Part shown: piece by piece, positions 25,309 through 58,359 of the stretch
Position numbering within the stretch: position 1 is the stretch's first letter
Layout: each line of letters starts with the position of its first letter
Virus record (IMG/VR): IMGVR_UViG_3300030330_002454
Source: an uncultured virus (IMG/VR IMGVR_UViG_3300030330_002454)
Taxonomy: Duplodnaviria; Heunggongvirae; Uroviricota; Caudoviricetes
DNA: 64,000 bases
Direction: 5' to 3' (one strand)
Translations under genes and position numbers: made by a program
The notes under the pieces: model-generated
Database searches by the model: none
Told to the model about the DNA's origin: nothing
Seen by the model: the letters and a program-made list of their open reading frames with translations, nothing else

Positions 25309-25456
25309 CTTTTTGCAAGATAAGGTTGCAGATGCTTTAGACTTTATGTTTAATCCTAAAACTCCTTCAGAGACTATGTATGAAAATATAAAGTCTAATC
25401 GAGTAGAGGTAGAACAAGAAATGATAAAAAAGCAAAATAATATTATGGGAGAATAA
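25280..25456 (+). CDS. small hypothetical protein (58 aa, not in ORF track)
   Basis: MPTPNEIVNSFLQDKVADALDFMFNPK...; overlaps the portal 3' end. Confidence 0.5.
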   Translation: MPTPNEIVNSFLQDKVADALDFMFNPKTPSETMYENIKSNRVEVEQEMIKKQNNIMGE

Positions 25457-25527
25457 AATATAATCTTCAAAATTATATTTTAGCTATAAAAAGTAAATAA
25501 TTTAAACAACACTGCAGTGACAAGGTG

Positions 25528-41575: not shown

Positions 41576-44500
41576 ATGATACAAAGTTTAAGAGACGCAA
41601 TAAATAACGGTAAAACCTCTGGGCAAATACAAAATATAACCCTTACTTACTCAATTCCAAATCTAGAACCTATTCTTGTAGATCACCCTAGAACGGAAGG
41701 AGTTAGAGTTTTACCTGGAACTTATATTACAGCTGACGCATTTGATGTTGAAATTATAAATAGTTTTTCTCAATGGAGTTATTTTATAAATGAATTATAT
41801 AAAGACTATGTAGTTTTAACTTTTGAAAAGGTTGAGTCTAATGCAGATGTGACTATAGAGTTTAATGCCTCTCTTACTGGTTTACATATGGTACATAAAA
41901 ATACACGTACCATAGAATTAAATTTAGGAATAAATTGGAACCTAGTACATTTTACAAATGGTGTTTTATTATTAAATTATGTAGTTTATGGTATTGGTAA
42001 ACTTTTAGGAATTCAAAATACAAATGTTTTATCTCCTATGAGCTTTGACCATTTAAATATAAATTATGTTAATTTATTTGATTTAAATGTTTCAGATTCT
42101 GGTTATGTGCAGCAAGGTTATATTAAAAATTACCATGCTATAATAATACAGACAATGTTTATTTTTGGAGATGTTTTTGGTAATCCTATGATATTTGGAT
42201 GTACAGATCCTAACTCTACAAACTATAATCCTGATGCAACACATAATGATTTTAGTTGCATACCTTTACCTGTCAGTCCAGATCAATCTATAAGACCGTC
42301 TCTGCGTTACAATGGATCTTTCGATGAGTATTTTTTAGCTAATAATTCTGAGATATATGCTTATGGAGTAGGGACATTTGAGTCTCCAATGCTTATTACA
42401 GATATTAATAATAATACTACTACTTTACCTTTAGGGTTTTCTGATGAACTTTATCCGCTTACATCTTTAGTAATAACAGATAAAGCGCCTGGTACTTATG
42501 GAGATAGTAGTGGGCAGCCTAGATATTACATAGTGCTTTCTCATGCAGGTGATATTAATGTTTTTAATAAAGATGGGCAGTTGCTTTCTGGAATGCCTAA
42601 TTATAGTTCTACAGATGTATCTGCTATAGTTTCTTATTATGTTCATAATATGAATATTAATTACCAGCCATATGGTACGGATAGACATTCTCTTTCTTGG
42701 ATTACAAAGAGAGGAGAAATTAAAAGATTAATATTAAATGATACATTAGCACAGCTTAATGATCAAGGTCAAACAGTAGCAGCTTGTGATTTAGATACAT
42801 ATACTCACGGTAATATTGAAGCTAACCAAACTTTTTCTACTATTGGTTCTCCTATAACAGACATTAATGGTGATTATTTAACTGTTAATGAGCAAGGTCA
42901 AATGTCTTCTATTATTGACACAAATTTAGAAGATGATGTTTTTGAAGCTAAATATGTAGGGATAGCTTATCAAAGTCTTCTTGGTAATTATGTAGAGACG
43001 ATGCAACAACTTTTTGATCCGCTCGATTCTCCTAAGCTACAATCCGATCCTTCTAATTTTACTGTACATCAAGATATTAGTAATTTAAAAACATGTTTTA
43101 TTCCTACTATTGATGGCGTTAAAGCTTTAAGTGTAGATTTATTTGGTAACTTTTTACAAATAACTAATTTAGATTTAGGTAGCCTATACACAGGTAGTCA
43201 TACTCATGCTGTTTGGGCAGGAGATATTGATATTTTTGCTTCTGGACAATATCAAATAGATGATAGCATTTCTGTAACGAGGACGATTTATGGTACTAAT
43301 GCTGCACCATCTAATATAGATTACGATTTTAAACCAACAACAAATGAGACACTAGCACATGATTCTACTGCAAGACCATTAATTACTAGAAATACTAATG
43401 CAGACTGCCATCCTCACTTTGGGTTTGATCCAGGACAAATTTTACTAAGACCTTTTAGTAAAGGGTTTAGTTTTGAAACTACTAGTATATATAATATAAG
43501 TGATAAAGAATGGAGTAATGGGGAGTTTTCTATAGGAGAAGCTCCTATAGATCATTCTTTATTTGCATCTTTACCTATAACTTTAGGAAATAAATTACAT
43601 AGAAGTTTCTTTTGTGATATTACTAAAATAAGCTACCTATCTTGGGCAGTTCCAGTAACTCAGTGGGCTTCAGATTATGAATTTTATCAATTAGGTTTTA
43701 TTAACTCTGAGCATGCTGAAGCAATTGCTAGTGGTAACACTGCTACTACAGAAGAATATAACAATCTTAGACACGTAGGTGATTTTCATTTAGCTATTGC
43801 TGTAAAGCATGGTTTTATATTAACTAAGGTTAATAATACAAATTTCTCATTAGTATCGCCTACAACTGAAAATGGTATTGAGCTTCATGTGTCTGGAGGT
43901 AATCCTAGTATGGAAAGTTTTAATGGTGGATGGACTCCTATATCTATGGAGTTTTCTCCTCATGATACTTATTTATATGCTATTATACAAAATCCTTTAG
44001 ACTCTTCAGATAGAAGACTTGCTATATATAATATACATTCTGGAGGTGGTATACATGGATGCACTTTAGGGCAGTTAGACTCTAGCATATCAAACGACGC
44101 TATAGTAATAGATATTGAAGAAATGGATCTTGAAAAAGTAACGCTTCAAGATGATGGCTCTATTTATATTTGGAGTGCAGTAAATGACTATATAAAAATA
44201 CCAGATCCAGATTTAAGAATGTCTGTAGATTTATTTAGAGCAGACCCTCAAATTTATATAGTTTCAGGATCTACATATACACCATCTCGATCTTATTTAC
44301 ACAATGCGTTAGATGCTGATTTAGATATGGGTCCAAAAAGTTCAATATCGGTATTTCAGTATACAGCTTCAGACGCTAGAATTAAATATGCCGAAGTATT
44401 TAACTCATCAGAACCTTCTATATCAATAGGAGAAGGAATAACTCTTATAAATAACTTTGAATACAATTCAAAATTTATAGGCTCTGGATTTACATTTGAC

Positions 44501-47500
44501 TCAATATCAAATACAGTTTCTCAAAATGTAGAAGTAGATAATACAGTTCCTGAAGCTGCAGCGGTTCAAACTGCTAATAATTTAAATTTAGGAATTGTTG
44601 CTTATATTATAGAAAATGATGGATATATTGTATTAAAAGGTTACGATGGTACACCTATTATAGCTTATGATGCAACAGCAGAAAGTTATGATTTTAAAGA
44701 CTCTGTATTTATAACTTCAAGTGAGTCAGGTATTAATGACTATTTATTTGGATATGCAGATGGTGCTGCTGGGTCTTACACAGTTAAAAGTTTTGCAGCT
44801 ACTATTAATGCAGATGATCTTACATCATACTCTTATGAACTAAATTCTAACACTGCAACTCTTACAAATAGTATTAATGGAAACTACGCTTTCATACACG
44901 GCGCTAGAATTTTAAAAACTGATTTAGAACAAGATAAACTTTTATTCTTAAGAACTGTAACAGATGTAACTTCTACTGAAAATAAAAAAGAAATTTATTT
45001 AACCTTAGCTGAATATACTAATAATGGCTTTGAAACATCTGACAGCATTATTCCAATACATAATATATTAAGCGACAAACTTTCTGAAAACGCATCCACT
45101 TTTAGTATTTCTGGAATACAATTATATACTACTATAGCTGTAAGTCGAGATAATAATTACATAGCTATTGGTACTATGTCTAAAAGTGCTAATCATTTAC
45201 ATACTGAACTTTCTTTAAGTGTTTATCATTTAGATATTACTGCTGATATTAATAGCGGTAATGTAATAGGATCTCAAGTAGGAATAACTGCAAAAATGGA
45301 CGTACACTTGACAGAAGACTATGGAGATTCTTTTGTTCCAATGACTAATAGTATTATTAGAGGATTAGAATTTTCTAATTTTAATACTACTGATCAGTCA
45401 TATAAATTATATTGTTTAATAGGTAAACATGGTTCTTACGCGTCTACTACAATTGAAGGACTTTCTAAATCTAACAGAATAGTAAGATTTAAATTAACAG
45501 CAGATGTTTTATCTTTTGATGGTCCTTTAGTAAATCAACAGACATTTCCAGAACCTGAAGGAACTAGTGTTCAAAATTTTGTAACATTTACAGATGGGGT
45601 TTCAGATCAGGGTAATTCTTTTTATGCAAATAACTCAGCACCTATAGGATTATTTTTAAACGCAGAGGGAGAGATATTTATATCTAATATAATAACTTCA
45701 CAGTTATATAGACCTAATGCCCCAGAAGAAAAAGTTATTTTTGTTGGGGGATATGTAAGTGATTCACCGTCGTCAAATTCAAGATTATTTAGAACAGCTT
45801 GTATCAAAAGTATTTTTGATGAAGTAAGAAGTATTAGAAGCGCAGGTTACTCTGCTCTTGTACCTTCTGGCGCTGTTGGAGGTGTTAAAAGTGGAGGGCC
45901 TGGAGACTTCGAGGAGTTTGAAGACCCTACAATAGAAATTTTACCTCCTGTAGCAACTCAAGGATGTACAGATCCAACTGCTGTAAATTATAACCCTTGG
46001 GCTACTATTGATGATGGATCATGTCTGTACGAATCAGGAGTAGGTAATTGTTTTGGAACTTGTACAGGAGATGGATTCTCTCTTTTAAATTTATTTGCTG
46101 ACTATTATGGTAATGTCTTTTATGACATGCTTGAAGAGATTCAAAATGTAAGTAATAATTTTTGTGGACTATCGCTTACACTAGAACAAATATCTGATCT
46201 GTTAAATCAAGATACTGGTGGGCAAGTATTAGCGCTAGCGCTTTTCCAAACTTTTAAAAATCCTTACTGTAATTGTTCGTGTACTTATTATGCAGAATTT
46301 ATAGCAGAGTATTCTTTTCAAAGTTTTTATGACGTTACTACAGAAGACGTTATGAATTATGGGAATGAAGGTTCCTTACCTTGGTTTACTAATATCTTAG
46401 AAGCCGAGGCACAAGGGTACCCTCTTGGTGATATATGTTCAGTAAATCTTTTTCAAACAACTTCAAAATATTATTATATACCAACACAAGGTTACTCAAG
46501 CGCAATTAACGCACAAAATATTAATTTAGGAACAGATCCTTTTGTTACAGGAAGTGATGAGCAACTAGTTTTACTTGGTGGAATTGTTGGAGGAACTCAA
46601 GGTACAGGAGCTATATCGCCTGGATACGCTAATGTTATTCATATAGATGATTGGAACGAAGATTATTGTAGAACTTGTACAGATCCAGGATCTCCTAATT
46701 ATGTAGGTATAACACCTGAAGCTTGCGAGCAAGCAGATCAGTTTTGTTTTGATGATCCTGCATACTGCGGTGCGTTTGGTTGTACTGATCAAAATGCATG
46801 TAATTATATGCCTGCTGCTACTGTAAATGATGGTTCTTGTCAATACGCTCCTTCTGGAATAAATAGTTATGGAACTGACGTTGGTGTAATATGCGGATGC
46901 CCAGGAATTGGCGCTCAAGAAAATGGATTTAATTTTGGCTATTATGCATCTTCTTATTGTGGAGGATGTTTAACTGAAGAAGAAAGAGCTGAATTAAGAG
47001 AAAAATCTGAATTTTGTAATTGTGATGGAACTACTGTTCCTACAGGAAATCCTTCTAACCAAGGTATGTGGGGTATAGCTCACTACTGTGATTGTGAAGG
47101 GCAAACACCAAGTGATATAGCTGAAAATGCAGGAGAGTACGGTTGTATATGTGATCAAAATGGAAATTTAAGTAATTATTCTACAGGAGGACAGTTTCCT
47201 GTAGGTATATGTGATTGCTATGGTTCTACTAGTCTGGGTCCTGGATGTAGTTGCGGTGAATACACTTCTCAAGATGATTGGGCTGACCTTGAACTATTAG
47301 ATTATGATCACTGGTGTGATTGTAATACACCTGCTGCACTCTGGTATCCAAAAAATACGGATGGCTCATATACAGCTCATTGTGATGCAGTTCCTTTAAA
47401 AATTTGTCAATCCGCAGGCTCATACGGCGAGGAAAATAACCCTACTGTTAACTGGTTCCATGGGTACGAAGGAGATTTAGGAATTGATGATACTCTTTCT

Positions 47501-50212
47501 ACAGATGTTTATATTGATATATCAACTGGTACACAATATAGTTTAGCACAGTTAGAAGCAGACTACTTCCAAGGCCCTCTTAACGAGTTAATGTGTTTTG
47601 ACTGTGCTTTAGATGGTCCTAACGGAGAGCCTCAAGAATACAACTGTAACGGTGATTGTAAATATTTTATTGGAACTGGTTCTGAAGATTTAGAGATTAC
47701 TATTAATCCGTTATTTTCAGAGTATGCTATAAATGAAGATTGCGGACAATGTTTGCATATAAGTCAAGCAGGCGATTGTTGTAATGTAGATGAGAACGGA
47801 GAACAAATTTTAGATGTTTGTGGACAATGTATAAATTTAATTCCTAATGGAGGTATAACAGTTACTAATGTACTTACTGCTAGTGGTGAACCAACGGGCA
47901 GTTTTGAGGTAAGAAAAACTAACACTTCAGGAACTGTAGTAGGTGTTTGGTTTAGTGATTGTAATCCTTGTGCAGAAGCAGGAGGACCTATAACACCAGA
48001 AATGCAAAATAATGCTAACTGGATTACAAACAGTCAGTTTCTTGCTTATGGTAATTATTATCAACCAGATGATTGTCAACAGTGTGCAGGAACTAATGAG
48101 ATGCAAGATGATGATGATAGATTTACTGGATATATTAAATACGAATTTATGCCGCCTGGTGATGCTGGGGCAATTGATATGTATAGATGTAACTGTGATG
48201 AGGTCGGATTTCCTATTGCAACAATTATAGCAACAGAAACATGTTGTCCAGGATACACTTGGAGCCCATGCTCAAACGGTGGAGAAGGTGGATGTGTAGG
48301 ACCTGGTTACCCCGTACTAACTAAAGACTGTGCTGGTAACTGCCCTACGGGAGTTTACCTAGTTCAAGATCCACTGGAACAAGAGTATGTTTATCCTTAC
48401 GGTATTAATAGTTGTGGTGAATGTACTGCTATGATTAATGAGGACACAGAATTTACTCCAGGAACTCCAGAGTATTTACTAGCAGCTACACCTATGGAAA
48501 CTTTTAATGCTGTTGGATGTTGCGGAGATCAAGTACTGGCTTGCCAAGATGGATGCCAAGATCCAAATGAAGCTTTAGAAGAAGATCAATGTGGTGTGTG
48601 TGGCGGAGATAATAGTAGCTGCAGTGGATGTACAGATTCTACAGCTTTTAATTATAATCCTAATGCAACTATTGATGACGGTAGTTGTGTATTTACTTCA
48701 TTATTAACTATTATAGAAGAAACAACTTCTAATCATGTTTTTGATTATTTAAATCCTAGTTTAGGTCAAAATTTAAATTTAGAATCTGTATTTTTTATAG
48801 AGGGTCTAATATTTGACACAGCTACATTGACTGCAATTCAAAATAACCCGATAGTAGCAACAAATTCAGCCTTATCAGATACATTTGGAGAAACGATTTA
48901 TATTGACCAACCTTACTATACACAAAAGTGTCAAGTTATAACAACAACTAATACGGTTCTACATTTAAATAATCCTTTAGCTAATGCTGAAATAAGTTAT
49001 ACTGATATAGATCCAATAAACAATGATTATATAGCTCAACATTCTTCTTACGCAAATATTCAGTATCAAGGTGATGCTCAATTTTATACAACATACTATT
49101 TTAGGCTTGAGGCAAACTTAGCTGAGATGCTTACTGAAACAGATATTAATGTTATATTCGGAGGACAGTATGCAGATCAGGTTGCTTCAGTTACACACTG
49201 TGGTGGTGGAATATCAGTTACTGCTAGTTATGCTACTATGTGGCTTGAGTTTAATGAGGCAAGTCCTTTGCAAACAGGAGTATTAGAAGAAGACGCCAAT
49301 CATACTGTATACAACGTGTATAAAGTAAGAATGTCAGTAAATCCTGTAACAGGAGAACCGTACACAACATCTATAGACTTTGCGCAGTACTTGGATATTC
49401 CTGTATTTGGATGTACAGTTCCATATGCTAGTAACTGGAACCCAGCTGCAACTCAAGATGATGGTTCTTGTGAATATACTTTCCCAGAATCAGGTTTTAT
49501 ACTTACTATAAATGGATACCCTAATTTAGAAGAGAATTTAAAATGGGTTTTGTATGACGCTAACAATAAGTTAGTAGCTGCAAACTGGGGAGAGTATCCG
49601 ACAACTTTTGCTGATACAGGTTCATACAGTACATACTTACCAACTGCAAATAGTTGTTTATACTTTATTCCTTTAGGATTTAGATATAACGATGCTTGGT
49701 TAGATGTAACTTTAAAAATAAGTGATTTACAAACTCCAATACTTGTTTTACATGAAGGAGCAAATATGAGGGCTCATCATTCTAATGATATTGATAATAG
49801 AGGTACTGCTTTAATAGATAGAAGACCGTTCTCTTTATTCCCTTTACCTTCATGTACTGTAGGTTGTACAGAAACTACTGTTCCGAACACTGTGAAAACA
49901 GATTACTGTATATCTTATGTTAAACAAGATGAAAAAGAATTTACAGATATATCTTTTAAATTAGAGATCGGAAAGCCTATTACTACTAGATCGCATTTCC
50001 AACTTAGACTTTATAATTTAGATACTGCAGAAACTCTAATTGATTTTAAAGACATAGAAGATATAAATATAGCAACTAGTTATGTAAAAGAGTTTGCTAT
50101 AGATTCTCAAACTCGTGTAGGTATTTATATACATAACCGAGAGGAAGTGCCTTTAAAATATGAAATGGTATCTGAGTATGGAGAAATAATAATTAAAAAG
50201 AAACTAAACTAA
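41576..50212 (+). CDS. giant 2878 aa putative virion/adhesin-like protein with Cys-rich repeats
   Basis: Uninterrupted ORF with degenerate matrixin-like N-terminus, beta-rich middle, at least 5 GCTDP-type repeats and CxC/DxCGxC region. Confidence 0.7.
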   Translation: MIQSLRDAINNGKTSGQIQNITLTYSIPNLEPILVDHPRTEGVRVLPGTYITADAFDVEIINSFSQWSYFINELYKDYVVLTFEKVESNADVTIEFNASLTGLHMVHKNTRTIELNLGINWNLVHFTNGVLLLNYVVYGIGKLLGIQNTNVLSPMSFDHLNINYVNLFDLNVSDSGYVQQGYIKNYHAIIIQTMFIFGDVFGNPMIFGCTDPNSTNYNPDATHNDFSCIPLPVSPDQSIRPSLRYNGSFDEYFLANNSEIYAYGVGTFESPMLITDINNNTTTLPLGFSDELYPLTSLVITDKAPGTYGDSSGQPRYYIVLSHAGDINVFNKDGQLLSGMPNYSSTDVSAIVSYYVHNMNINYQPYGTDRHSLSWITKRGEIKRLILNDTLAQLNDQGQTVAACDLDTYTHGNIEANQTFSTIGSPITDINGDYLTVNEQGQMSSIIDTNLEDDVFEAKYVGIAYQSLLGNYVETMQQLFDPLDSPKLQSDPSNFTVHQDISNLKTCFIPTIDGVKALSVDLFGNFLQITNLDLGSLYTGSHTHAVWAGDIDIFASGQYQIDDSISVTRTIYGTNAAPSNIDYDFKPTTNETLAHDSTARPLITRNTNADCHPHFGFDPGQILLRPFSKGFSFETTSIYNISDKEWSNGEFSIGEAPIDHSLFASLPITLGNKLHRSFFCDITKISYLSWAVPVTQWASDYEFYQLGFINSEHAEAIASGNTATTEEYNNLRHVGDFHLAIAVKHGFILTKVNNTNFSLVSPTTENGIELHVSGGNPSMESFNGGWTPISMEFSPHDTYLYAIIQNPLDSSDRRLAIYNIHSGGGIHGCTLGQLDSSISNDAIVIDIEEMDLEKVTLQDDGSIYIWSAVNDYIKIPDPDLRMSVDLFRADPQIYIVSGSTYTPSRSYLHNALDADLDMGPKSSISVFQYTASDARIKYAEVFNSSEPSISIGEGITLINNFEYNSKFIGSGFTFDSISNTVSQNVEVDNTVPEAAAVQTANNLNLGIVAYIIENDGYIVLKGYDGTPIIAYDATAESYDFKDSVFITSSESGINDYLFGYADGAAGSYTVKSFAATINADDLTSYSYELNSNTATLTNSINGNYAFIHGARILKTDLEQDKLLFLRTVTDVTSTENKKEIYLTLAEYTNNGFETSDSIIPIHNILSDKLSENASTFSISGIQLYTTIAVSRDNNYIAIGTMSKSANHLHTELSLSVYHLDITADINSGNVIGSQVGITAKMDVHLTEDYGDSFVPMTNSIIRGLEFSNFNTTDQSYKLYCLIGKHGSYASTTIEGLSKSNRIVRFKLTADVLSFDGPLVNQQTFPEPEGTSVQNFVTFTDGVSDQGNSFYANNSAPIGLFLNAEGEIFISNIITSQLYRPNAPEEKVIFVGGYVSDSPSSNSRLFRTACIKSIFDEVRSIRSAGYSALVPSGAVGGVKSGGPGDFEEFEDPTIEILPPVATQGCTDPTAVNYNPWATIDDGSCLYESGVGNCFGTCTGDGFSLLNLFADYYGNVFYDMLEEIQNVSNNFCGLSLTLEQISDLLNQDTGGQVLALALFQTFKNPYCNCSCTYYAEFIAEYSFQSFYDVTTEDVMNYGNEGSLPWFTNILEAEAQGYPLGDICSVNLFQTTSKYYYIPTQGYSSAINAQNINLGTDPFVTGSDEQLVLLGGIVGGTQGTGAISPGYANVIHIDDWNEDYCRTCTDPGSPNYVGITPEACEQADQFCFDDPAYCGAFGCTDQNACNYMPAATVNDGSCQYAPSGINSYGTDVGVICGCPGIGAQENGFNFGYYASSYCGGCLTEEERAELREKSEFCNCDGTTVPTGNPSNQGMWGIAHYCDCEGQTPSDIAENAGEYGCICDQNGNLSNYSTGGQFPVGICDCYGSTSLGPGCSCGEYTSQDDWADLELLDYDHWCDCNTPAALWYPKNTDGSYTAHCDAVPLKICQSAGSYGEENNPTVNWFHGYEGDLGIDDTLSTDVYIDISTGTQYSLAQLEADYFQGPLNELMCFDCALDGPNGEPQEYNCNGDCKYFIGTGSEDLEITINPLFSEYAINEDCGQCLHISQAGDCCNVDENGEQILDVCGQCINLIPNGGITVTNVLTASGEPTGSFEVRKTNTSGTVVGVWFSDCNPCAEAGGPITPEMQNNANWITNSQFLAYGNYYQPDDCQQCAGTNEMQDDDDRFTGYIKYEFMPPGDAGAIDMYRCNCDEVGFPIATIIATETCCPGYTWSPCSNGGEGGCVGPGYPVLTKDCAGNCPTGVYLVQDPLEQEYVYPYGINSCGECTAMINEDTEFTPGTPEYLLAATPMETFNAVGCCGDQVLACQDGCQDPNEALEEDQCGVCGGDNSSCSGCTDSTAFNYNPNATIDDGSCVFTSLLTIIEETTSNHVFDYLNPSLGQNLNLESVFFIEGLIFDTATLTAIQNNPIVATNSALSDTFGETIYIDQPYYTQKCQVITTTNTVLHLNNPLANAEISYTDIDPINNDYIAQHSSYANIQYQGDAQFYTTYYFRLEANLAEMLTETDINVIFGGQYADQVASVTHCGGGISVTASYATMWLEFNEASPLQTGVLEEDANHTVYNVYKVRMSVNPVTGEPYTTSIDFAQYLDIPVFGCTVPYASNWNPAATQDDGSCEYTFPESGFILTINGYPNLEENLKWVLYDANNKLVAANWGEYPTTFADTGSYSTYLPTANSCLYFIPLGFRYNDAWLDVTLKISDLQTPILVLHEGANMRAHHSNDIDNRGTALIDRRPFSLFPLPSCTVGCTETTVPNTVKTDYCISYVKQDEKEFTDISFKLEIGKPITTRSHFQLRLYNLDTAETLIDFKDIEDINIATSYVKEFAIDSQTRVGIYIHNREEVPLKYEMVSEYGEIIIKKKLN

Positions 50213-50532
50213 TGATTAATTATTTTGAAGCAATAACGATAGGATTATCTAAAGCAGGTTGTACAGATCCAAATGCAGCAAACTATGATCCTAAAGCAAA
50301 AATAAACACAGGATTATGTTTTGATTCTGCATTTGAAGAATGTTTATATAATAATTTATTTTCTGTATCTCTTAGAGATTGCCACTTAGATAAAACTAAA
50401 AGAGTTTTAAAAATGTACGCACTTTACGATGGATATAGACAAGCTATTAGAGAAGGTAATCAAACTAAAATAGATATTTATACAAAACAGCTTACAGATA
50501 TGTGTAATGCTGAATATTGTGAATCATGTTAA
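50212..50532 (+). CDS. small protein with one GCTDP repeat and Cys-rich helical C-terminus
   Basis: AGCTDPNAANYDPKA...; ends MCNAEYCESC. Confidence 0.6.
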   Translation: MINYFEAITIGLSKAGCTDPNAANYDPKAKINTGLCFDSAFEECLYNNLFSVSLRDCHLDKTKRVLKMYALYDGYRQAIREGNQTKIDIYTKQLTDMCNAEYCESC

Positions 50533-51346: not shown

Positions 51347-51551
51347 AGCTGGCGGTAAAAAAATTAAAATGGCTAAGAAAGGTCTAAGCGCAAAACAATC
51401 TAGAGTTATGGATAAAAATAACGACGGTAAAATTAGCGGCGCTGATTTTAAATTAATGAGAGACGGCGGTAAAATGATGGCTAAAGGTATGGACATGATG
51501 AATAGAGTCATGATGAAATACGGTGGAAAAGCAAAGAAGAAAAAGAAATAA
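51318..51551 (+). CDS. small Lys/Met-rich protein with EF-hand-like loop
   Basis: DKNNDGKISGADF; xGG repeats. Confidence 0.6.
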   Translation: MAMKKKAGYKAGGKKIKMAKKGLSAKQSRVMDKNNDGKISGADFKLMRDGGKMMAKGMDMMNRVMMKYGGKAKKKKK

Positions 51552-51766
51552 TGGAAATTTTTAAAGACAACAACAACTGGAATGAAAAAGCTATCGTAGG
51601 GTTTATAGCCTTTGCGGTTATGTGTATGATTATGGTAGCTGATCTAGTAACAGGATGGGTAGGCGCTGACCTTGTAATAAATGAGTTTGTATATGATTCA
51701 TTTGTCTGGGTAGTGCTTGGCTGTTTTGGAATCTCAGGTGTAGAAAAATTTGCTAAAACTAAATAA
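51551..51766 (+). CDS. two-TM holin-like membrane protein
   Basis: Two hydrophobic helices; ends GISGVEKF. Confidence 0.55.
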   Translation: MEIFKDNNNWNEKAIVGFIAFAVMCMIMVADLVTGWVGADLVINEFVYDSFVWVVLGCFGISGVEKFAKTK

Positions 51767-52009: not shown

Positions 52010-52198
52010 ATGGCAAAACGAGGACTATACGCAAACATCCACGCTAAAAGAAAAAGAATAAAAGCAGGTAGTGGAGAAAAAATGAGAAAGCCTGGGAGCA
52101 AAGGAGCTCCTACAGCGGCTAACTTTAAACGTGCTGCAAAAACTGCAAAGAAAAGACCAGCAGCTAAAAAAAGAACTACTAGACGAAAAAAGAAATGA
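52010..52198 (+). CDS. small basic phage protein
   Basis: GLYANIHAKRKRI...GSKGAPT, a motif I recognise from marine phage late regions. Confidence 0.65.
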   Translation: MAKRGLYANIHAKRKRIKAGSGEKMRKPGSKGAPTAANFKRAAKTAKKRPAAKKRTTRRKKK

Positions 52199-54669
52199 GA
52201 AAACTAATTTACTTATTTTTAGTTTTAAGTCTAACAGTTACAGCACAAGATACTATTCTAGATTGTTTTGGAACAGTTGCGCCTACCGCTTGGTTAGGCG
52301 ATGGTTTTTGCGATAACGGTTCGTATACATGGAACGGCAACGTAATAGACTTTAACTGTGAAGAGTTTGGTTATGATGCAGAAGACTGCCCGTTACCTAT
52401 AGATACTGTACCAGGCTGTACAGATATGTTAGCTTTAAACTATGTACCTGAAGCAAACTTTAACGATGGTACATGTGAGTATCCTGTATTTGGATGCACT
52501 AACCCAGAAGCGCCTAACTTTAATCCTTGGGCACAGGCGGACGACAATAGCTGTGTAGGTATAAGTTGCTCTGATGGTGAAGCTAAAATGATTTTTAAAC
52601 TTACACTAGATCAGTACCCTGGTGAGACAGGTTGGATACTAACAGACCTGTCTAATGGGCAGCCTGTAGAAAGTGTTACAGCTGGTGAATATTCTTATGA
52701 AGAAGCTAACCAAACTATTGTATATGATTTATGTGTGCCTGAAACAGGTGTAGAACTTATACTAAGTGATACATACGGTGACGGTCTAGAAGGATCTTTG
52801 TTTGGTGGTACAGATGGAGACTTTATTATACTTGGTGATGCAGAGCCTTGTGGTAGTTTAGATACGCTATGGGCTTTACCAGAGCCAGGCTTTGGCAACG
52901 CTGCATACTCGGGCCCTATATGGTTAGAGCAATGTGACTTACCTATAATAGAAGGATGCACAAACAATACATATATAGAATTTAATCCAGGAGCTAACTT
53001 TGACGATGGGTCCTGCGAAACATTACACACACTGGGCTGCATTAATCCTAATGCTTTTAACTTTAACCCACAAGCTACATTAAACGAAATAGTACCTACA
53101 TGTAACTATACTCTTATTATAGAGGATGATGGTGGTGATGGTTGGGGTGATTGCTATATAGGTGTAGTACAAGAAGATAGTATTCTTGGTACATATACTA
53201 TGGGACCTGGCTCTTACTCACAAGAGTTTGGTATAACACTAGAGACAGATAAACCTGTAAAAGTATATTACTTTGAAATAGCTAGTGCTCAAACTCCTCC
53301 TGCAGAAGTCGCTTTCCAGACTATGCATAACTCATTTAAACTTATAAATTCAAACGGTGATGTAACGCTACAAGGTGGTGTATATCCATTTTCTGATAAT
53401 GGACAGGGAGCACTTAAACCTTATAAACCACCGTTTTGGTATGTATACGATGCTCTTCCATTTTGTGGAGATTATTGTATACCTAAAGTATACGGGTGTT
53501 TGGATGAACAAGCTTTAAACTATAACTCTGACGCAAACACTGATGATGGTTCTTGTATTGAAATAGTAGAAGGTTGTACCTCACCCTTTGCATTTAACTA
53601 CGACTCCCTTGCTAATGTAGATGATGAAAGTTGTGTAGCAGTAGTTGTAGGCTGTATGAATAGCGAGGCTTGGAATTATAATCCAGACGCAAATACAGCA
53701 GATGAATCTTGTTTATACTTTGGCTGCACTGATGAGTTAGCTCTTAACTACGATAGTACAGCAAACGTAAATAACGATAATTGTATATACCCCGTTCCAG
53801 GGTGTACGGATCCTCTCGCATTTAACTTTGAAATAGATGCCAATGTCAATGACGGTAGTTGCATCCCCGTTATAATAGGATGCATGGATCCTACAATGTA
53901 TAATTATAATGAACAAGCAAACACGGCAAGCGATAATTGTATACCTTTTATATTTGGGTGTACTGATACTATTGCATTTAATTATGACCCTGTTGCTAAC
54001 ACCGATAACGGATCTTGTATTCCAATAACCCCTGGGTGTACAGACCCTAATGCCTATAACTATAATGCAGATGCTAATACAGAAGACTTTTCTTGTGTAG
54101 ATGTAGTGTATGGATGCACTGATGATGCAGCATTTAATTATGATCCATTAGCAAACACTGACAACGGTGGATGTATAGATGTTTTAGAAGGTTGTATGGA
54201 CCCGCTTGCACATAATTACGATGCAGTGTATAATACAGATGACGGAAGTTGTTTATATGATGCAGGTTGTATAGGAGGCCCTGGTGTACCATACTGGTTA
54301 AACGATACTTGTTATGCTTGGGTAATTATGATAGATCCTTACTGTTGTAATAACGAATGGGATGATAAATGTCAACAGATATACTGGAGCTGTGCTTGGG
54401 ATAGTCCACTTGATACAAGAGATTTACTTAGAGGGCATAATATTGTTATGTATCCTAATCCTATGGGAGATGTAATAAATATATTAACAAATGGTTCTGT
54501 AGGTATAGAAGTATATGATATATCAGGCAAGCTTATAATACGAGTTAAAGAAAACCAAACTGCAGAAGGACTAAATCAATTAGATGTAAGTTTACTACCT
54601 GCAGGTGTATATAATTTTCATGTAACATATGACGGTAACACTAGCACAACAAAAGTATTAAAGAAATGA
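52195..54669 (+). CDS. secreted T9SS cargo protein (type A C-terminal sorting domain) with Cys repeats
   Basis: Signal peptide ...TVTA/Q; LNR-like WLGDGFCD...FNC...DC; 14 GC(T/M)D-type repeats; C-terminal YPNP...VYDISGK...DVSLLPAGVY...KVLKK. Confidence 0.85.
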   Translation: MRKLIYLFLVLSLTVTAQDTILDCFGTVAPTAWLGDGFCDNGSYTWNGNVIDFNCEEFGYDAEDCPLPIDTVPGCTDMLALNYVPEANFNDGTCEYPVFGCTNPEAPNFNPWAQADDNSCVGISCSDGEAKMIFKLTLDQYPGETGWILTDLSNGQPVESVTAGEYSYEEANQTIVYDLCVPETGVELILSDTYGDGLEGSLFGGTDGDFIILGDAEPCGSLDTLWALPEPGFGNAAYSGPIWLEQCDLPIIEGCTNNTYIEFNPGANFDDGSCETLHTLGCINPNAFNFNPQATLNEIVPTCNYTLIIEDDGGDGWGDCYIGVVQEDSILGTYTMGPGSYSQEFGITLETDKPVKVYYFEIASAQTPPAEVAFQTMHNSFKLINSNGDVTLQGGVYPFSDNGQGALKPYKPPFWYVYDALPFCGDYCIPKVYGCLDEQALNYNSDANTDDGSCIEIVEGCTSPFAFNYDSLANVDDESCVAVVVGCMNSEAWNYNPDANTADESCLYFGCTDELALNYDSTANVNNDNCIYPVPGCTDPLAFNFEIDANVNDGSCIPVIIGCMDPTMYNYNEQANTASDNCIPFIFGCTDTIAFNYDPVANTDNGSCIPITPGCTDPNAYNYNADANTEDFSCVDVVYGCTDDAAFNYDPLANTDNGGCIDVLEGCMDPLAHNYDAVYNTDDGSCLYDAGCIGGPGVPYWLNDTCYAWVIMIDPYCCNNEWDDKCQQIYWSCAWDSPLDTRDLLRGHNIVMYPNPMGDVINILTNGSVGIEVYDISGKLIIRVKENQTAEGLNQLDVSLLPAGVYNFHVTYDGNTSTTKVLKK

Positions 54670-55703
54670 AAAAATTATTAATAATATTATTATTTATTCC
54701 TTTATTAGGAAATGCGCAAGGGTTACATAAAATATTTAAGTACTCTACATTTTATGCTGCGGTTAATGGTGGTACATCATTAGGAGATGATCAGATATGG
54801 TCTATTACATCTGGTGCACTAGAAGAACAAACAATACAAACACCTTTTGATTATACACTATCTATAGGTATAAGAAAAATAAAACGATTTGGTTATGAAA
54901 ACAGGGCTCTTACTTTTTATAATGGTACAGAAAATTCATACAGTGATGCTGCCACAATTGGTAGAGTCGATGGCTTTGAGTATTTATTCGAGGCTGATTT
55001 TGTACGTCGTTTAGGTGTTAACTTTACAAACCAGCATCACTTTGTAAGATATGTTGCTGATAAATGGGTAAGTAAAGTAGAATACTTAGAAGATGGCTTT
55101 GCTGATATAAAATACTTTGAAGCGTCAGAAAGGTTTAGAGTACAAATAGGTGAGGCAGGTAAGTTATCTGTAAATGTAGGAGCTGTACAACGTCTTGCAG
55201 AGCCATATGGTTTTGACCCCCTGGCAGACTGGGTGCTGGACAATGGGACATTACACTATACATACTTGGCACTTCAAGAGGGATACACTATAACATTAGA
55301 TGGACAGTATTCAGCACCCAATGGAGAGATAGTAGCAACTAGTCAAGAAGTATGGGAAGAAGTTGTTATACCACAAGTAATAGATGACTATGTAGAAAAA
55401 CAAAGAAGTGCAATATCTAATATAGTAGAATACTCTGCAGTACTAGGTTTTGATTACTATCATTTTACAAAAGACTTTTGGTTTCACAGCTGGGGTAACC
55501 TTATGCCATATCATATAGATACGGATAACACATACTCTTATCACAAGTTTAATAACGGACAATGGTTAGATTACTCAGCAGGACTTATTTACGGATACAG
55601 ATTTAATAAAAGTTTAGGTGTATTTGTAGAAGGTAGATATAATAAATACTGGAACCGACGATGGCACAACTTTAGTGTCGGTATTAACTATGTAATATTT
55701 TAA
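54666..55703 (+). CDS. putative outer-membrane beta-barrel protein
   Basis: Signal peptide ...GNA/Q; amphipathic aromatic-rich strands; C-terminal FSVGINYVIF beta-signal. Confidence 0.65.
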   Translation: MKKLLIILLFIPLLGNAQGLHKIFKYSTFYAAVNGGTSLGDDQIWSITSGALEEQTIQTPFDYTLSIGIRKIKRFGYENRALTFYNGTENSYSDAATIGRVDGFEYLFEADFVRRLGVNFTNQHHFVRYVADKWVSKVEYLEDGFADIKYFEASERFRVQIGEAGKLSVNVGAVQRLAEPYGFDPLADWVLDNGTLHYTYLALQEGYTITLDGQYSAPNGEIVATSQEVWEEVVIPQVIDDYVEKQRSAISNIVEYSAVLGFDYYHFTKDFWFHSWGNLMPYHIDTDNTYSYHKFNNGQWLDYSAGLIYGYRFNKSLGVFVEGRYNKYWNRRWHNFSVGINYVIF

Positions 55704-55706
55704 CAG

Positions 55707-55991
55707 ATGGCAAAAGAATTAAGTGAAGAAACATCATTCAATATAAGTCTTAAAACTCTAGCAGGCATTGCAGTATTAATGGCTGCAGCTATTAGTGGAT
55801 GGTTTGTACTACAAGCAGACATAGCAGAGGCTAAAAAATTACCTCTGCCTCCTGATCCAGAGATTACTCGTATGGAGTATGACATGAAAGATCAGTTAAT
55901 ACGTCAAACTATTATGACAACACAAGATGATGTAAAAGAAATTAAAGGACATATGCTACGCCTTGAAGAAAAGATAGATGACTTAAAATAA
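55707..55991 (+). CDS. single-TM coiled-coil protein
   Basis: TM helix, PLPP linker and C-terminal heptads. Confidence 0.6.
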   Translation: MAKELSEETSFNISLKTLAGIAVLMAAAISGWFVLQADIAEAKKLPLPPDPEITRMEYDMKDQLIRQTIMTTQDDVKEIKGHMLRLEEKIDDLK

Positions 55992-55997
55992 TATCTT

Positions 55998-56333
55998 ATG
56001 AAAAAACTATTTGTTTTATTTTGTATTTGCACTAGCGCCTTAGCTCAAGACTTTCCTGATGGAATGGTTGCTGTTGAGTTTAACGCTAGTTTTAATAAAT
56101 CTAATGAGGTAGCCTGGCTGACAAAACTATCAGACTGTGAAACACAAAGAGTTGATATAACAGCAGATGCAAGATGGTCTAAAGAATACAAAATAGTAGT
56201 TGTACCTACTATTGTAATATTTAACAATAACGAAGAAGTAAAAAGATTTCAAGCAAATATAATGATGACTATGGAGGCCACTAAAAAAGATGTGCAAGAC
56301 TCTATAGATGAAATTGTAATGGAAGCATTTTAA
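55998..56333 (+). CDS. secreted thioredoxin-fold protein lacking CxxC
   Basis: Signal peptide ...ALA/Q; VEFNASFN replaces the WCxxC region; YKIVVVPTIVIFNNNEEVKRF cis-Pro region. Confidence 0.65.
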   Translation: MKKLFVLFCICTSALAQDFPDGMVAVEFNASFNKSNEVAWLTKLSDCETQRVDITADARWSKEYKIVVVPTIVIFNNNEEVKRFQANIMMTMEATKKDVQDSIDEIVMEAF

Positions 56334-56342
56334 ATTTAATAT

Positions 56343-56813
56343 ATGAGACTAAGTAAGAATTTTGTATTATCAGAGATTACTCGAAGTAATACAGCAAGAA
56401 GAAAAGGAATAAGTAATGAACCAGAAAAGAAACATCTGGCTAGTCTGCAGACTATCATTACAGAGCTTATTCAGCCTATGCGGGATGCTATCGGTCCTAT
56501 CCGTATTAGCAGTGGTTATCGCAGCCCGAAACTTAATCGTGCTATCGGAGGAAGTAGCCGCTCGCAACATTGTAAAGGTGAAGCACTGGATCTGCAGTTT
56601 TGGAAAGACGGAGAAATGAATAATAAAATCATTTATGATTGGATACTAGACTCAGGTTTGGAGTTTGATCAGATGATAAATGAATTTAATTTTGCATGGA
56701 TACATATATCATTTAGTTCAGGCAAAAACAGAAAGCAAGTACTAGAAGCTTATAAAAACGATCAAGGTAAAACAGCTTATAGACATGCAAGTGATAATAT
56801 AAAAGCACTTTAA
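56343..56813 (+). CDS. peptidase M15A endolysin
   Basis: LSKNFVLSE, SSGYRS..LN..IGG...SQHCKGEALD and WIHIS motifs. Confidence 0.9.
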   Translation: MRLSKNFVLSEITRSNTARRKGISNEPEKKHLASLQTIITELIQPMRDAIGPIRISSGYRSPKLNRAIGGSSRSQHCKGEALDLQFWKDGEMNNKIIYDWILDSGLEFDQMINEFNFAWIHISFSSGKNRKQVLEAYKNDQGKTAYRHASDNIKAL

Positions 56814-57199
56814 TGAGTAAGTTATTAAGTTTTTTAGGTGGCAACACTATTGAGAAGATTGGAGACGTAGTAGATAAACTAAGTACGTCAGATGAAGAGC
56901 GCATGGAAGCAAAGCGTATGATGAAACAAATTTTATTAGACGCAGAAGCTAAAGGGCAAGAACAAGTAACACGTCGTTGGGAGGCTGATATGAAGTCTGA
57001 CAACTGGCTTAGTAAAAATATTAGACCATTGATTTGTATCTTTTTAACAGCAATGTTCATAATTATTTCTATATTTGATGGGAATTTAGGAGAATTTGTT
57101 ATATCTCCAGCCTATATTCCTATCTACCAGACACTATTAATTACCGTGTACGGTGCTTATTTTGCTGGAAGGAGTATAGAAAAAATTAGAAAAAAATGA
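56813..57199 (+). CDS. holin (GTA-type 3TM-like family)
   Basis: RWEADMKSD.WLSKNIRP, TM helices and AYFAGRSIEK; coupled to the endolysin. Confidence 0.8.
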   Translation: MSKLLSFLGGNTIEKIGDVVDKLSTSDEERMEAKRMMKQILLDAEAKGQEQVTRRWEADMKSDNWLSKNIRPLICIFLTAMFIIISIFDGNLGEFVISPAYIPIYQTLLITVYGAYFAGRSIEKIRKK

Positions 57200-58359
57200 T
57201 ACAACAGTTAGACCGAGAAGGAAACGTTATCGATGAATTCTCTAGTATCTATGAAGCAAGTAATGCATTAGGTATAGACCAAAGCAATATAGCAAAGGTT
57301 GTTAGAGGAGTCAGAAAATACGCAGGAGGGTATGGATGGAAAGACAGTAATGATAATGTAAACGAAACACAAAATATAGGGGATATAGATCCTTTATATA
57401 TACCCGAACTGGATTTACATCTAAAAGAGAGGGGAATAAAAAAACAAGATGTTAAGTCAGTTAAACACTGGCAAGCTGCTAACGGAGATTATAGATTTTC
57501 TGTAGTAACAAAAGAAAATGGATTTGATCTTAAGCAGTTTAAAAAAGAGTTCTTTGAAGAAATGAAACAGTATATCCCAGAGGTTGCAGTTCCTAACTAC
57601 AATCTTAAACAGGGATCTCCTGTAGCCTACGAAATATCTTTACCTGATTTTCATTACGGTAAGATAGGGGCTATATCTCAAGAGGATAATAATTTAGATT
57701 TTATGAACACTGTAAAAGAGTTACATAAAAAAGCTGAAGGATTAAACATAGAAAGATTTATATTACCTATTGGTAATGACGGTCTTAACTCTGAAGGATA
57801 TAGTAGAGCTACTACTAAAGGTACACCACAGCATGATGCTGAAGAATGGCAGCAAACCTTTAGAGGTTATTGGAAGTTACTGGTTAAAGCAATAGATTAT
57901 CTATCTGCGTTTGCACCTGTAGATGTTATAGTAGTGCAAGGTAACCATGACTTTGAACGTATGTTTTATATAGGAGAAGTAATAGAAGCTTGGTACAGAA
58001 ATTATAAACCAGTGACAGTATACAATAGTTATGAGTCAAGAAAGTATTACAAATACGGAAACAATATGCTTATGTTTACACATGGGGATAAAGAGAAGCC
58101 AGCAGACATGCCCCTTCTTATGGCAACCGAAATGCCAACAATGTTTGCAGAATGCGAACACAGAGAAGTGCACTGCGGGCACCAACATAGAGAAATTGTT
58201 AATACCTACCAAGGAGTAAAAGTTAGATTCCTTCCAAGTATTGCAACACATGATGCCTGGCATAAAATGATGGGGTATCATAGTAAACGAGAAGCACAAG
58301 CTTATATATGGAATAAAGAGAAAGGATGTGAAGGATATTTACAAGTAAATTTAAAATAA
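57196..58359 (+). CDS. calcineurin-like metallophosphoesterase with N-terminal NUMOD1 domain
   Basis: DFHYG, GND, GNHD, THGD and GHQH motifs; N-terminus QLDREGNVIDEFSSIYEA...AGGYGWK. Confidence 0.8.
   Translation: MIQQLDREGNVIDEFSSIYEASNALGIDQSNIAKVVRGVRKYAGGYGWKDSNDNVNETQNIGDIDPLYIPELDLHLKERGIKKQDVKSVKHWQAANGDYRFSVVTKENGFDLKQFKKEFFEEMKQYIPEVAVPNYNLKQGSPVAYEISLPDFHYGKIGAISQEDNNLDFMNTVKELHKKAEGLNIERFILPIGNDGLNSEGYSRATTKGTPQHDAEEWQQTFRGYWKLLVKAIDYLSAFAPVDVIVVQGNHDFERMFYIGEVIEAWYRNYKPVTVYNSYESRKYYKYGNNMLMFTHGDKEKPADMPLLMATEMPTMFAECEHREVHCGHQHREIVNTYQGVKVRFLPSIATHDAWHKMMGYHSKREAQAYIWNKEKGCEGYLQVNLK

Follow-up and report, generated by a model that had tools for sequence, protein, structure and literature searches.

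A late gene run of an uncultured marine crAss-like phage pairs an accessory type IX secretion cargo with a conserved gene trio that may act in outer-membrane lysis

Introduction

Outer-membrane passage at lysis by phages of Bacteroidota is poorly known, and a late gene run in an uncultured virus raises the question of what a phage does with a set of envelope proteins encoded directly before its endolysin. The run lies in the IMG/VR record IMGVR_UViG_3300030330_002454, of which one stretch of 64,000 nucleotides was analyzed; this whole stretch is called the window here. Four open reading frames (ORFs) on the plus strand make up the locus: ORF1 (52195..54669; 824 amino acids, aa), an exported Cys-rich protein with the type-A sorting domain of the system for type IX secretion (T9SS); ORF2 (54666..55703; 345 aa), a predicted outer-membrane beta-barrel; ORF3 (55707..55991; 94 aa), a predicted bitopic membrane protein; and ORF4 (55998..56333; 111 aa), an exported protein of thioredoxin fold. 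We refer to ORF2, ORF3, and ORF4 as the trio. An earlier note on this DNA had described all four genes as one cassette that uses the host T9SS to remodel the surface of the infected cell. Do these genes form one unit, and which step of infection would they serve?

Our answer separates the cargo from the other three genes. We give about even chances to a composite locus, in which ORF1 is an accessory T9SS cargo and the conserved trio acts in the outer-membrane step of lysis. Judged from sequence comparison, the cargo appears to be real, known in kind, and dispensable, and the trio appears to be abundant, confined to phages, and linked to lysis.

Results

Conservation of the trio and separability of the cargo

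The four genes are as tightly packed as the earlier note had described: ORF1 and ORF2 overlap by ATGA, and gaps of 3, 6, and 9 nt separate ORF2 from ORF3, ORF3 from ORF4, and ORF4 from the endolysin gene. Two sets of related loci were collected from IMG/VR. Set 1, the close clade, came from a scan with ORF2 that yielded 120 confirmed relatives, and the best 80 loci were kept. Set 2, the distant clade, came from a scan with an alignment of barrels about 34% identical to the ORF2 of the window; this gave at least 571 confirmed stretches, of which 80 loci were kept. By tblastn, the best 80 of the 120 loci of set 1 contained ORF3 in 79 cases, ORF4 in 79, ORF1 in 77, the C-terminal domain (CTD) of ORF1 in 75, an endolysin of the window type in 65, and a holin of the window type in 55. 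The co-conservation of the four genes in the close clade is far above chance, and the synteny survey that the earlier note had proposed as a check thus finds them together in other phage contigs. In the set-1 loci with an ORF2 about 60% identical to that of the window, the gene order is shuffled, with ORF1 placed 3′ of ORF2-ORF3-ORF4 or with ORF3-ORF4 separated from ORF2, yet the set stays together.

The association of ORF1 with the trio ends outside this clade. ORF3 was found in 64 and ORF4 in 60 of the 80 loci of set 2, and most of the loci without them end shortly after ORF2. A hidden Markov model (HMM) built from ORF1-type CTDs found a CTD ORF in none of these 80 loci. The most telling single genome is G001 (the record that holds locus L170), which has a length of 94,957 bp, is 100% complete according to CheckV, and encodes a major head protein (MCP) 84% identical to that of the window. 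Its gene order is g71-ORF2-ORF3-ORF4-endolysin-holin-exonuclease-structural protein, with flanks 62–87% identical to those of the window. Compared with G001, the window has two small genes, g81 and g62, and ORF1 inserted between g71 and ORF2. The TIGR04183 model had no match at E ≤ 0.01 across the whole of G001, and no match to the exported Cys-rich protein of the distant clade, described below, was found in this genome. Two complete genomes of the window's own clade, G006 and G007, contain exactly one CTD gene each. Because the complete close relative G001 keeps the trio without any T9SS-tagged gene, ORF1 appears to be a variable, exchangeable accessory gene. The claim that the four genes form one unit is contradicted by G001 and by the absence of CTD ORFs from the loci of set 2.

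The distant clade has an exported protein of its own, with a length of 168–310 aa and no CTD, which lies 3′ of ORF2 in 67 of the 80 loci. This protein (e.g., L093:6056-6775) has an N-terminal Cys module with a weak match to Ldl_recept_a (best E 4e-4, under the cut-off) and a long acidic/hydrophobic repeat region (DTI..E.EY...). Its conserved tail (...GLYIE(N/D)GKIKYK..) loosely resembles the last strands of a T9SS CTD.

Linkage of the trio to lysis genes

In the window, ORF4 is followed by the endolysin gene (56343..56813, plus strand; Peptidase_M15_3, 64.8 bits; phrog_894, E 5.1e-34) and by a gene for a holin of the gene transfer agent (GTA) type with three transmembrane (TM) segments (56813..57199, plus strand; PF11351, 27.5 bits at a cut-off of 24.8; phrog_3427, E 1.7e-27). 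Overlapping junctions also occur between endolysin and holin and between holin and the next gene. From g62 through the exonuclease gene, all genes lie on one strand and either overlap or are 3–9 nt apart; terminator-like sites show no excess, with 5 observed against 3.5 ± 1.8 by chance.

This neighborhood recurs in the related loci. Where both ORF3 and ORF4 are present, they are adjacent in 61/79 loci of set 1 and 59/60 loci of set 2, and several of the non-adjacent set-1 loci have a small exported gene between the two. Among the loci whose sequence continues downstream for at least 1 kb, an endolysin or holin of the window type lies directly 3′ of ORF4 in 58/77 (set 1) and 21/47 (set 2). Three loci (L167–L169) have a gapless ORF2-ORF3-ORF4-holin arrangement. 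Other kinds of enzyme are also found at the trio: a protein with PG_binding_1 and Amidase_2 directly 3′ of ORF4 (L085); a phrog_3000/33083-like protein between ORF4 and the holin in L160 (assigned to this family through its L075 homologue) and directly 5′ of ORF2 in L097; and an M15 endolysin directly 5′ of ORF2 (L087). Non-homologous replacement at a fixed position is a classic signature of lysis cassettes. Because unrelated endolysin types occupy the same position, the trio would belong to such a cassette, and we infer that it is a phage-only part of the late lysis genes. The way in which ORF3-ORF4 track endolysin and holin points to lysis rather than to the remodeling of the cell surface that the earlier note had favored.

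A crude lipobox scan of the window, in which all start codons were considered, found no lipoprotein ORF on the coding strand; the 64 kb thus show neither an o-spanin nor a u-spanin of canonical type.

Predicted products of the trio

The model of ORF2 made with AlphaFold from a 30-sequence alignment has 14 strands and a helical insert at residues ~185–248 (pLDDT 78.4, pTM 0.70). The protein contains no Cys and ends in ...NYVIF, and a terminal Phe or other hydrophobic residue is present in most of the full-length homologues listed; the description of ORF2 as a beta-barrel ending in Phe therefore stands. Structural matches were to generic outer-membrane barrels only (CymA, Z 11.2; OmpG, 10.8; TamA, 10.6), and the matches to PorV (6h3i_F, Z 8.1; 8gl6_F, Foldseek E 6e-3) both rank under generic porins. 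Based on this model, we predict that ORF2 is an exported 14-strand outer-membrane beta-barrel. By sequence it stands apart. ORF2 had nothing above threshold in Pfam, NCBIfam, or PHROGs, a Pfam scan of 30 family members at E ≤ 1 gave no match (PorP/SprF and PorV included), and its profile had 0 hits in the Protein Data Bank (PDB). A tblastn search with ORF2 and three distant homologues matched no record among 50,697 deposited phage genomes. In metagenomes, the family is large: 3555 relatives at E ≤ 1e-3 were present among metagenome proteins clustered at 90%, 327 representatives were found at 50% clustering, and none of the 120 relatives listed has a Pfam annotation.

A few relatives of ORF2 are filed under cellular names. 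A narrower ORF2 alignment found 12 loci in metagenome-assembled genomes (MAGs) labeled Pelagibacter, Parvibaculum, Nitrosopelagicus, Woesearchaeota, Flavobacteriales, and others, and the MAG labels of the trio-bearing contigs L081–L092 also include Maricaulis and Rickettsiales. Cellular homologues of ORF2 were considered here and rejected: given the phage-like neighbors in most of the MAG loci, we read them as binned phage contigs, and the trio contigs in cellular MAGs are most likely mis-binned. In one Flavobacteriaceae MAG (L090), the trio lies at the end of a 27.8-kb contig, where the neighbors, save one nuclease, have no match to a phage family; a prophage or a chimeric contig would explain this.

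In ORF3, an N-terminal tail leads into a single hydrophobic segment (approximately residues 11–35), beyond which lie a linker, PLPPDP, and a heptad helix of amphipathic character. The single TM segment reported by the earlier note is thus present, and the coiled-coil spacing was read from sequence alone, with hydrophobic residues at 3-4-3-4-3 intervals from V76 to L93. The flanking charge is –1 on either side of the TM segment, which leaves the topology ambiguous by charge. ORF3 lacks Cys, and its mean column identity is 76% across 55 homologues. Nothing above threshold was found for it in Pfam, NCBIfam, or PHROGs, and by tblastn it matched no record among the deposited phages. We regard ORF3 as a candidate i-spanin-like protein.

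The thioredoxin fold assigned to ORF4 was confirmed by its profile. At E ≤ 1 this profile had matches to 114 sequences of the PDB, and each of the 60 listed is a thioredoxin or has the thioredoxin fold, with 2vim_A in first place (E 6.5e-7). The single ORF4 sequence falls under the Pfam cut-off (21.5 vs 23.5 bits). In the alignment with 2vim, the CGPC loop is deleted in ORF4, and 54 homologues have “FNAxFN” in its place, while the cis-Pro motif VPT is retained. A single Cys of ORF4, C47, is nearly invariant, and the protein ends in Phe. ORF4 is thus predicted to be an exported protein whose thioredoxin fold is redox-inactive by loss of CxxC. In the deposited phages, its matches were only to the C-terminal third of Streptomyces phage thioredoxins.

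Gln directly after the signal-peptide cleavage site (the “Q-rule”) is a hallmark of Bacteroidota. As the earlier note had pointed out, it occurs in all three exported proteins of the locus, ORF1, ORF2, and ORF4, where the cleavage sites were placed by eye. It recurs in the homologues listed for ORF1 and ORF2, and in ORF4 it is found in 9/9 diverse homologues and is at least 90% conserved across the 54. The earlier view is supported that a Bacteroidota phage encodes these proteins for export to the envelope and that they are probably not ordinary virion parts of the cytoplasm.

Lipoprotein-like sequences near the trio

Several trio orthologues and neighbors carry lipobox-type sequences. A lipobox-type start is found on ORF2 in nine loci (L105, L108, L109, L113, L114, L115, L165, L168, and L079) and on ORF4 in L082:2915-3253. 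These starts precede the same short cassette (...L-I-S-C-A-T-P-K-K-C-C-A-Q...), which would be mobile between the two genes; beta-barrels do not usually carry a lipoprotein signal. A proline-rich lipoprotein of 61–63 aa adjoins ORF2 in two loci (L078:5735-5926 and L094:6050-6235) out of 172. It has the lipobox IVGC or AAGC followed by NPxxYNPNPRP, is o-spanin-like, and has no homologue in the window. The ORF4 of the window was considered as a lipoprotein o-spanin and rejected: its FCIC lacks a lipobox context, and ALA/QD fits a signal peptidase I (SPI) site. Finally, a 69-aa ORF on the minus strand (25261-25470), between the portal gene and the next plus-strand gene, has a strong lipoprotein-like start (MKIIFYSPIILFCFFIISC); it is the sole good lipobox in the window, though the ORF is probably spurious.

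ORF1 as a type IX secretion cargo

The identification of ORF1 as a T9SS cargo passed the HMM check that the earlier note had named. Its type-A CTD (54448..54666, plus strand; residues 752–824) scored 47.5 bits with TIGR04183 (cut-off 23) and 49 bits with PF18962 (Por_Secre_tail; cut-off 27). At the other end, a hydrophobic segment spans residues 4–22, and the signal peptide (52195..52245, plus strand; residues 1–17) ends in ...TVTA/QD. ORF1 would be exported by Sec and then pass through the host T9SS by means of its CTD, and it would end on or outside the infected Bacteroidota cell.

ORF1 is modular and contains 45 Cys. Two beta-sandwich domains (52555..53490, plus strand; residues 121–432) were modeled with AlphaFold (pLDDT 80.3, pTM 0.44), and this fold gave generic matches only, the best VIA match being a Ca-dependent carbohydrate-binding module (CBM) with Z 5.9 and the Foldseek TM score being ≤ 0.2. 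In Atlas, the passenger matched unnamed viral clusters only. An array of Cys-knot-like repeats of ~20 residues (53497..54252, plus strand; C-T-D-x2-A-x-N-Y-x3-A-x3-D-G-S-C) follows; 11 strict copies occur in ORF1, 9 of them within residues 435–686. Homologues of ORF1 have 670–1325 aa and are 36–92% identical to it, compared with 78–97% for ORF2 in the close group.

The repeats are shared with another product of the window, a signal-less protein of 2878 aa (41576-50212, plus strand) that is probably a virion protein. It contains 3 strict copies, the relationship was confirmed by BLASTP (E 1e-6), and its C-terminal stretch (residues 2609–2674) aligns with the start of the first beta-sandwich domain of ORF1. 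Among the 50,697 deposited phage records, ORF1 had matches through the Cys repeats only, and the repeat matches a “virion structural protein” of Synechococcus phage S-CAM3. Because the repeat and the domain start are common to ORF1 and the 2878-aa protein, one may speculate that ORF1 and the virion have a surface ligand in common, so that ORF1 could, for instance, cover the receptors of infected cells or of debris. A stretch like the repeat, CTDPNAANYDPKA, is also present in a 106-aa ORF (50212-50532, plus strand), where it is not counted by the strict pattern.

Neighboring genes and the phage

Upstream of ORF1 lie small basic proteins, and downstream of ORF4 lies the endolysin, both as the earlier note had reported. 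The Lys/Arg-rich g62 (52010-52198, plus strand; 62 aa) has 25 Lys and Arg in 62 residues, and g81 has 22 in 81. Gene g62 is not at the corresponding position in G001. In a blastn search with a 5.2-kb query, it was the sole part with nucleotide matches in deposited phages, namely 49 records in all, from phages of Prochlorococcus, Synechococcus, and Pelagibacter and including one Roseobacter phage, with 74–81% identity over ~150 nt. A small basic gene common at the DNA level to phages of three host phyla is odd.

Further upstream, g71 (51551..51766, plus strand; 71 aa) has two hydrophobic segments, TM-like at residues 15–33 and 46–64. By tblastn it was found in 49 loci of set 1, 32 of set 2, and 1 MAG locus, and it is about 86% identical even in distant trio-bearing contigs. 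It lies directly 5′ of ORF3 in L118, L163, and L164 and directly 5′ of ORF2 in L170. Its matches in Pfam were sub-threshold only. In size and topology it is, as we see it, reminiscent of class II holins and pinholins; g71 is possibly a holin- or pinholin-like membrane protein and may be a fifth member of the envelope and lysis set.

The gene after the holin (57196-58359, plus strand) combines DNA-binding motifs of the NUMOD type with a phrog_704 body. Its N-terminal part has I-HmuI_NUMOD-like (34.6 bits) and NUMOD1 (26 bits) motifs, and phrog_704 is annotated “DNA repair exonuclease” or calcineurin-like phosphoesterase.

The phage itself can be placed by its structural genes. The large terminase matches phrog_6681 (E 3e-118), the portal phrog_6547 (E 5e-139), and the MCP phrog_11589 (E 1.5e-102). 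The replication module lies on the strand opposite to the structural genes, and no tRNA genes were found in the window. The MCP matched 139 records, with identities of 31–34% for gut crAss-like phages and 30% for Cellulophaga phage phi14:2. The window thus appears to be a contig of an uncultured marine crAss-like phage; complete relatives span 88–95 kb, and the window covers 64 kb. The crAss-like MCP, the CTD, and the Gln+1 pattern of the signal peptides together suggest a Bacteroidota host.

Discussion

What the comparison establishes is how the sequences look, which folds they belong to, in what order the genes stand, and how they are conserved; where the three trio proteins would reside, how they might touch, and what they might do in lysis is our reading of it. 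Most likely, the trio would be a non-canonical spanin equivalent for the disruption of the outer membrane. Late in infection, ORF2, ORF3, and ORF4 would be made together with the endolysin and the holin, the gene packing suggesting co-transcription. After export, ORF2 would be placed in the outer membrane by the BAM machinery of the host, and ORF3 would be held in the inner membrane, its helix reaching into the periplasm. ORF4 would serve as a periplasmic binding module or adaptor between them. With the peptidoglycan cleared away by holin and endolysin, the complex of the three would destabilize or fuse the outer membrane as spanins do. The trio would then be a three-part stand-in for a two-component spanin in which a barrel replaces the lipoprotein o-spanin. 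A complex prediction of ORF2 (residues 19–345) and of ORF3 (36–94), each with ORF4 (18–111), scored 0.00 against a mark of 0.32; it was run without controls and is neutral on binding.

Several observations weigh against this reading. The linkage to lysis genes is frequent and not universal, as in set 2 an endolysin or holin of the window type lies within 2 kb after ORF4 in only 26/47 loci. Four loci of set 2 with ~5 kb of downstream sequence (L117, L119, L122, and L154) have neither ORF3 nor ORF4. In the window, neither ORF2 nor ORF4 has the lipobox of an o-spanin, both having SPI-type signals. The part of ORF3 after the TM segment comprises 59 residues, which we take to be shorter than in Rz-type i-spanins. 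Outer-membrane genes without a role in lysis can adjoin lysis genes, an example being lambda bor beside Rz/Rz1. ORF2 has a variable exported Cys-rich neighbor in both clades, ORF1 in the close one and the CTD-less protein in 67/80 distant loci, and the barrel allele changes with this neighbor: between the window and G001, identity is 35% for ORF2 and 42% for ORF4 while the flanks remain at 62–87%. In addition, Bacteroidetes phages use unimolecular spanins according to one paper (PMC12596118), and such a gene could lie outside the window.

The last of the genomic observations leads to an integrated module for surface display. In it, ORF2 would serve the variable Cys-rich export product as its dedicated partner or anchor, and ORF3 and ORF4 would assist assembly, so that the infected cell surface is altered, e.g., to mask receptors, to exclude other phages, or to adhere. 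Translational coupling of ORF1 and ORF2 is suggested by their ATGA overlap, and an ORF1 homologue is present at every close-type ORF2 locus (at least 50% identity) with enough flank. The distant clade has its other Cys-rich protein after ORF2, the exchange of the ORF2 allele along with its exported neighbor would fit a cargo partner at least as well as a lysis protein, and the repeats and domain start common to ORF1 and the 2878-aa protein would suit a receptor mimic or mask. T9SS type-B cargos of the hosts do pair with adjacent PorP/SprF barrels. However, ORF2 has no signal of PorP/SprF, PorV, or any other T9SS family in 30 members at E ≤ 1, and its structural resemblance to PorV (Z 8.1) is below that to generic porins. 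A cargo with a type-A CTD is not known to us to need a private barrel. The association is at the level of clades and may reflect a single event or the tracking of the host envelope by both genes. Moreover, G001 and L167–L171 keep ORF2-ORF3-ORF4 without an adjacent exported partner, and G001 has neither kind of cargo. We therefore consider surface display as the purpose of the whole module to be rather unlikely. The earlier proposal that the barrel serves as an anchor fares accordingly in two halves: the neighborhood of a variable exported protein, changing together with the barrel allele, speaks for it, and the presence of the trio in G001 without either cargo speaks against it. The chaperone role suggested there for the thioredoxin-fold protein is conceivable, the findings pointing neither way. 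A combination of the two functions, a lysis device spanning the periplasm whose three parts (the barrel as the foot in the outer membrane, ORF4 as adaptor, and the short helical ORF3 in the inner membrane) resemble no known system and whose allele-matched barrel also holds the variable exported Cys-rich protein at the surface, seems unlikely to us. If true, thousands of phages of ocean Bacteroidota would build an envelope organelle of their own that joins the display of a surface protein to lysis.

Two further explanations give the trio other tasks. It could be a device for superinfection exclusion or receptor blocking that merely stands beside the lysis genes, for which T5 Llp, T4 Imm/Sp, and lambda bor/lom are precedents; Llp and Imm/Sp exemplify proteins of the outer membrane and periplasm that keep further phage from entering. 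All three proteins are predicted to be in the envelope, and the low identities of ORF2 (35%) and ORF4 (42%) between conserved flanks are what an arms race would leave. However, the genes lie inside the late structural and lysis run with its overlapping junctions and not among early genes, and the trio can be followed through thousands of proteins to identities as low as ~30%, more as expected of a core function than of a moron. Divergence itself does not discriminate, since lysis proteins are extremely diverse according to Kongari 2018 (PMC6139136). On balance, an exclusion device is distinctly improbable. Alternatively, ORF3 and ORF4 might regulate the timing of lysis as an antiholin-like pair that acts on the three-TM holin or on g71, the role of ORF2 being unrelated. 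The pair is tightly linked to endolysin and holin, the median distance between ORF2 and ORF3 in set 2 is 922 nt, and the two-TM g71 is directly 5′ of ORF3 in L118, L163, and L164; the periplasmic antiholin domain of T4 binds its holin. Against such regulators, ORF2 accompanies ORF3-ORF4 in all lineages sampled and lies immediately beside them in 75/79 loci of set 1, neither protein resembles known antiholin families in Pfam, NCBIfam, or PHROGs, and a phage truly without a spanin would still need to pass the outer membrane. Timing regulation is, in our estimate, very doubtful.

For the spanin-like reading of the trio, the literature offers a starting point. In Kongari 2018 (PMC6139136), Bacteroides and Croceibacter phages are listed as spanin-less, and it is stated there that “an OMP could act as an o-spanin” (OMP, outer-membrane protein). 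The trio is a concrete and very abundant candidate for this speculation on an OMP in place of the lipoprotein spanin. No description of the trio was found in full-text searching, subscription-only papers being outside its scope. The earlier opinion that no phage system of this kind had been described is thus consistent with our searching as regards the trio; for the T9SS cargo it does not hold, as shown by the variable genes of the “Cryophage,” which include a phage-encoded T9SS type-A cargo (Bellas et al., 2020; PMC7468147), and by ORFs with a T9SS sorting domain in cluster 2 of the crAss-like phages of the gut (de Jonge et al., 2019; PMC6949934). ORF1 adds a marine crAss-like example to these few printed cases of phages that borrow type IX secretion.

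A comparison with known systems shows both likenesses and differences. The Lom barrel and the Bor lipoprotein of lambdoid phages are lysogenic-conversion morons with an 8-strand or lipoprotein architecture. ORF2 is like them a phage gene for a host outer-membrane protein beside late or lysis genes, and it differs in its 14 strands, in its conservation across marine phage contigs that number in the thousands and appear to be lytic, and in the constant company of ORF3 and ORF4. With the T9SS type-B cargos and PorP/SprF barrels of Flavobacterium and Porphyromonas, the locus shares a secreted surface protein beside an outer-membrane barrel gene; unlike those pairs, the CTD of ORF1 is of type A, and ORF2 has no PorP/SprF HMM signal.

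The published phage T9SS cargo and ORF1 have in common the type-A sorting domain, high variability between related phages, and a presumed hijack of the host system, and the function of ORF1 is presumed in the same way as theirs. The passengers differ, as that of ORF1 consists of Cys repeats and beta-sandwiches, while the published cargo is a glycoside hydrolase, PA14, or BACON protein. Unlike the published cargo, ORF1 stands in a late operon directly 5′ of a gene for an outer-membrane barrel.

The two-component spanins of the lambda Rz/Rz1 type (PMC6139136) resemble the trio in being encoded by adjacent or overlapping small genes in the lysis cassette and in forming extremely diverse families. 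The bitopic spanin protein with its helical soluble domain has a candidate counterpart in ORF3, and the products of both systems could link the inner and outer membranes. Unlike Rz/Rz1, the trio contains no lipoprotein, would be anchored in the outer membrane by a 345-aa beta-barrel, and includes a third component of thioredoxin fold. Spanins typically form disulfides between molecules, for which ORF2 and ORF3 have no Cys; in addition, ORF3 is short, and there is no sequence similarity. By sequence and architecture, the trio appears to stand outside any known spanin family, and functionally it would be a new variant of outer-membrane disruption.

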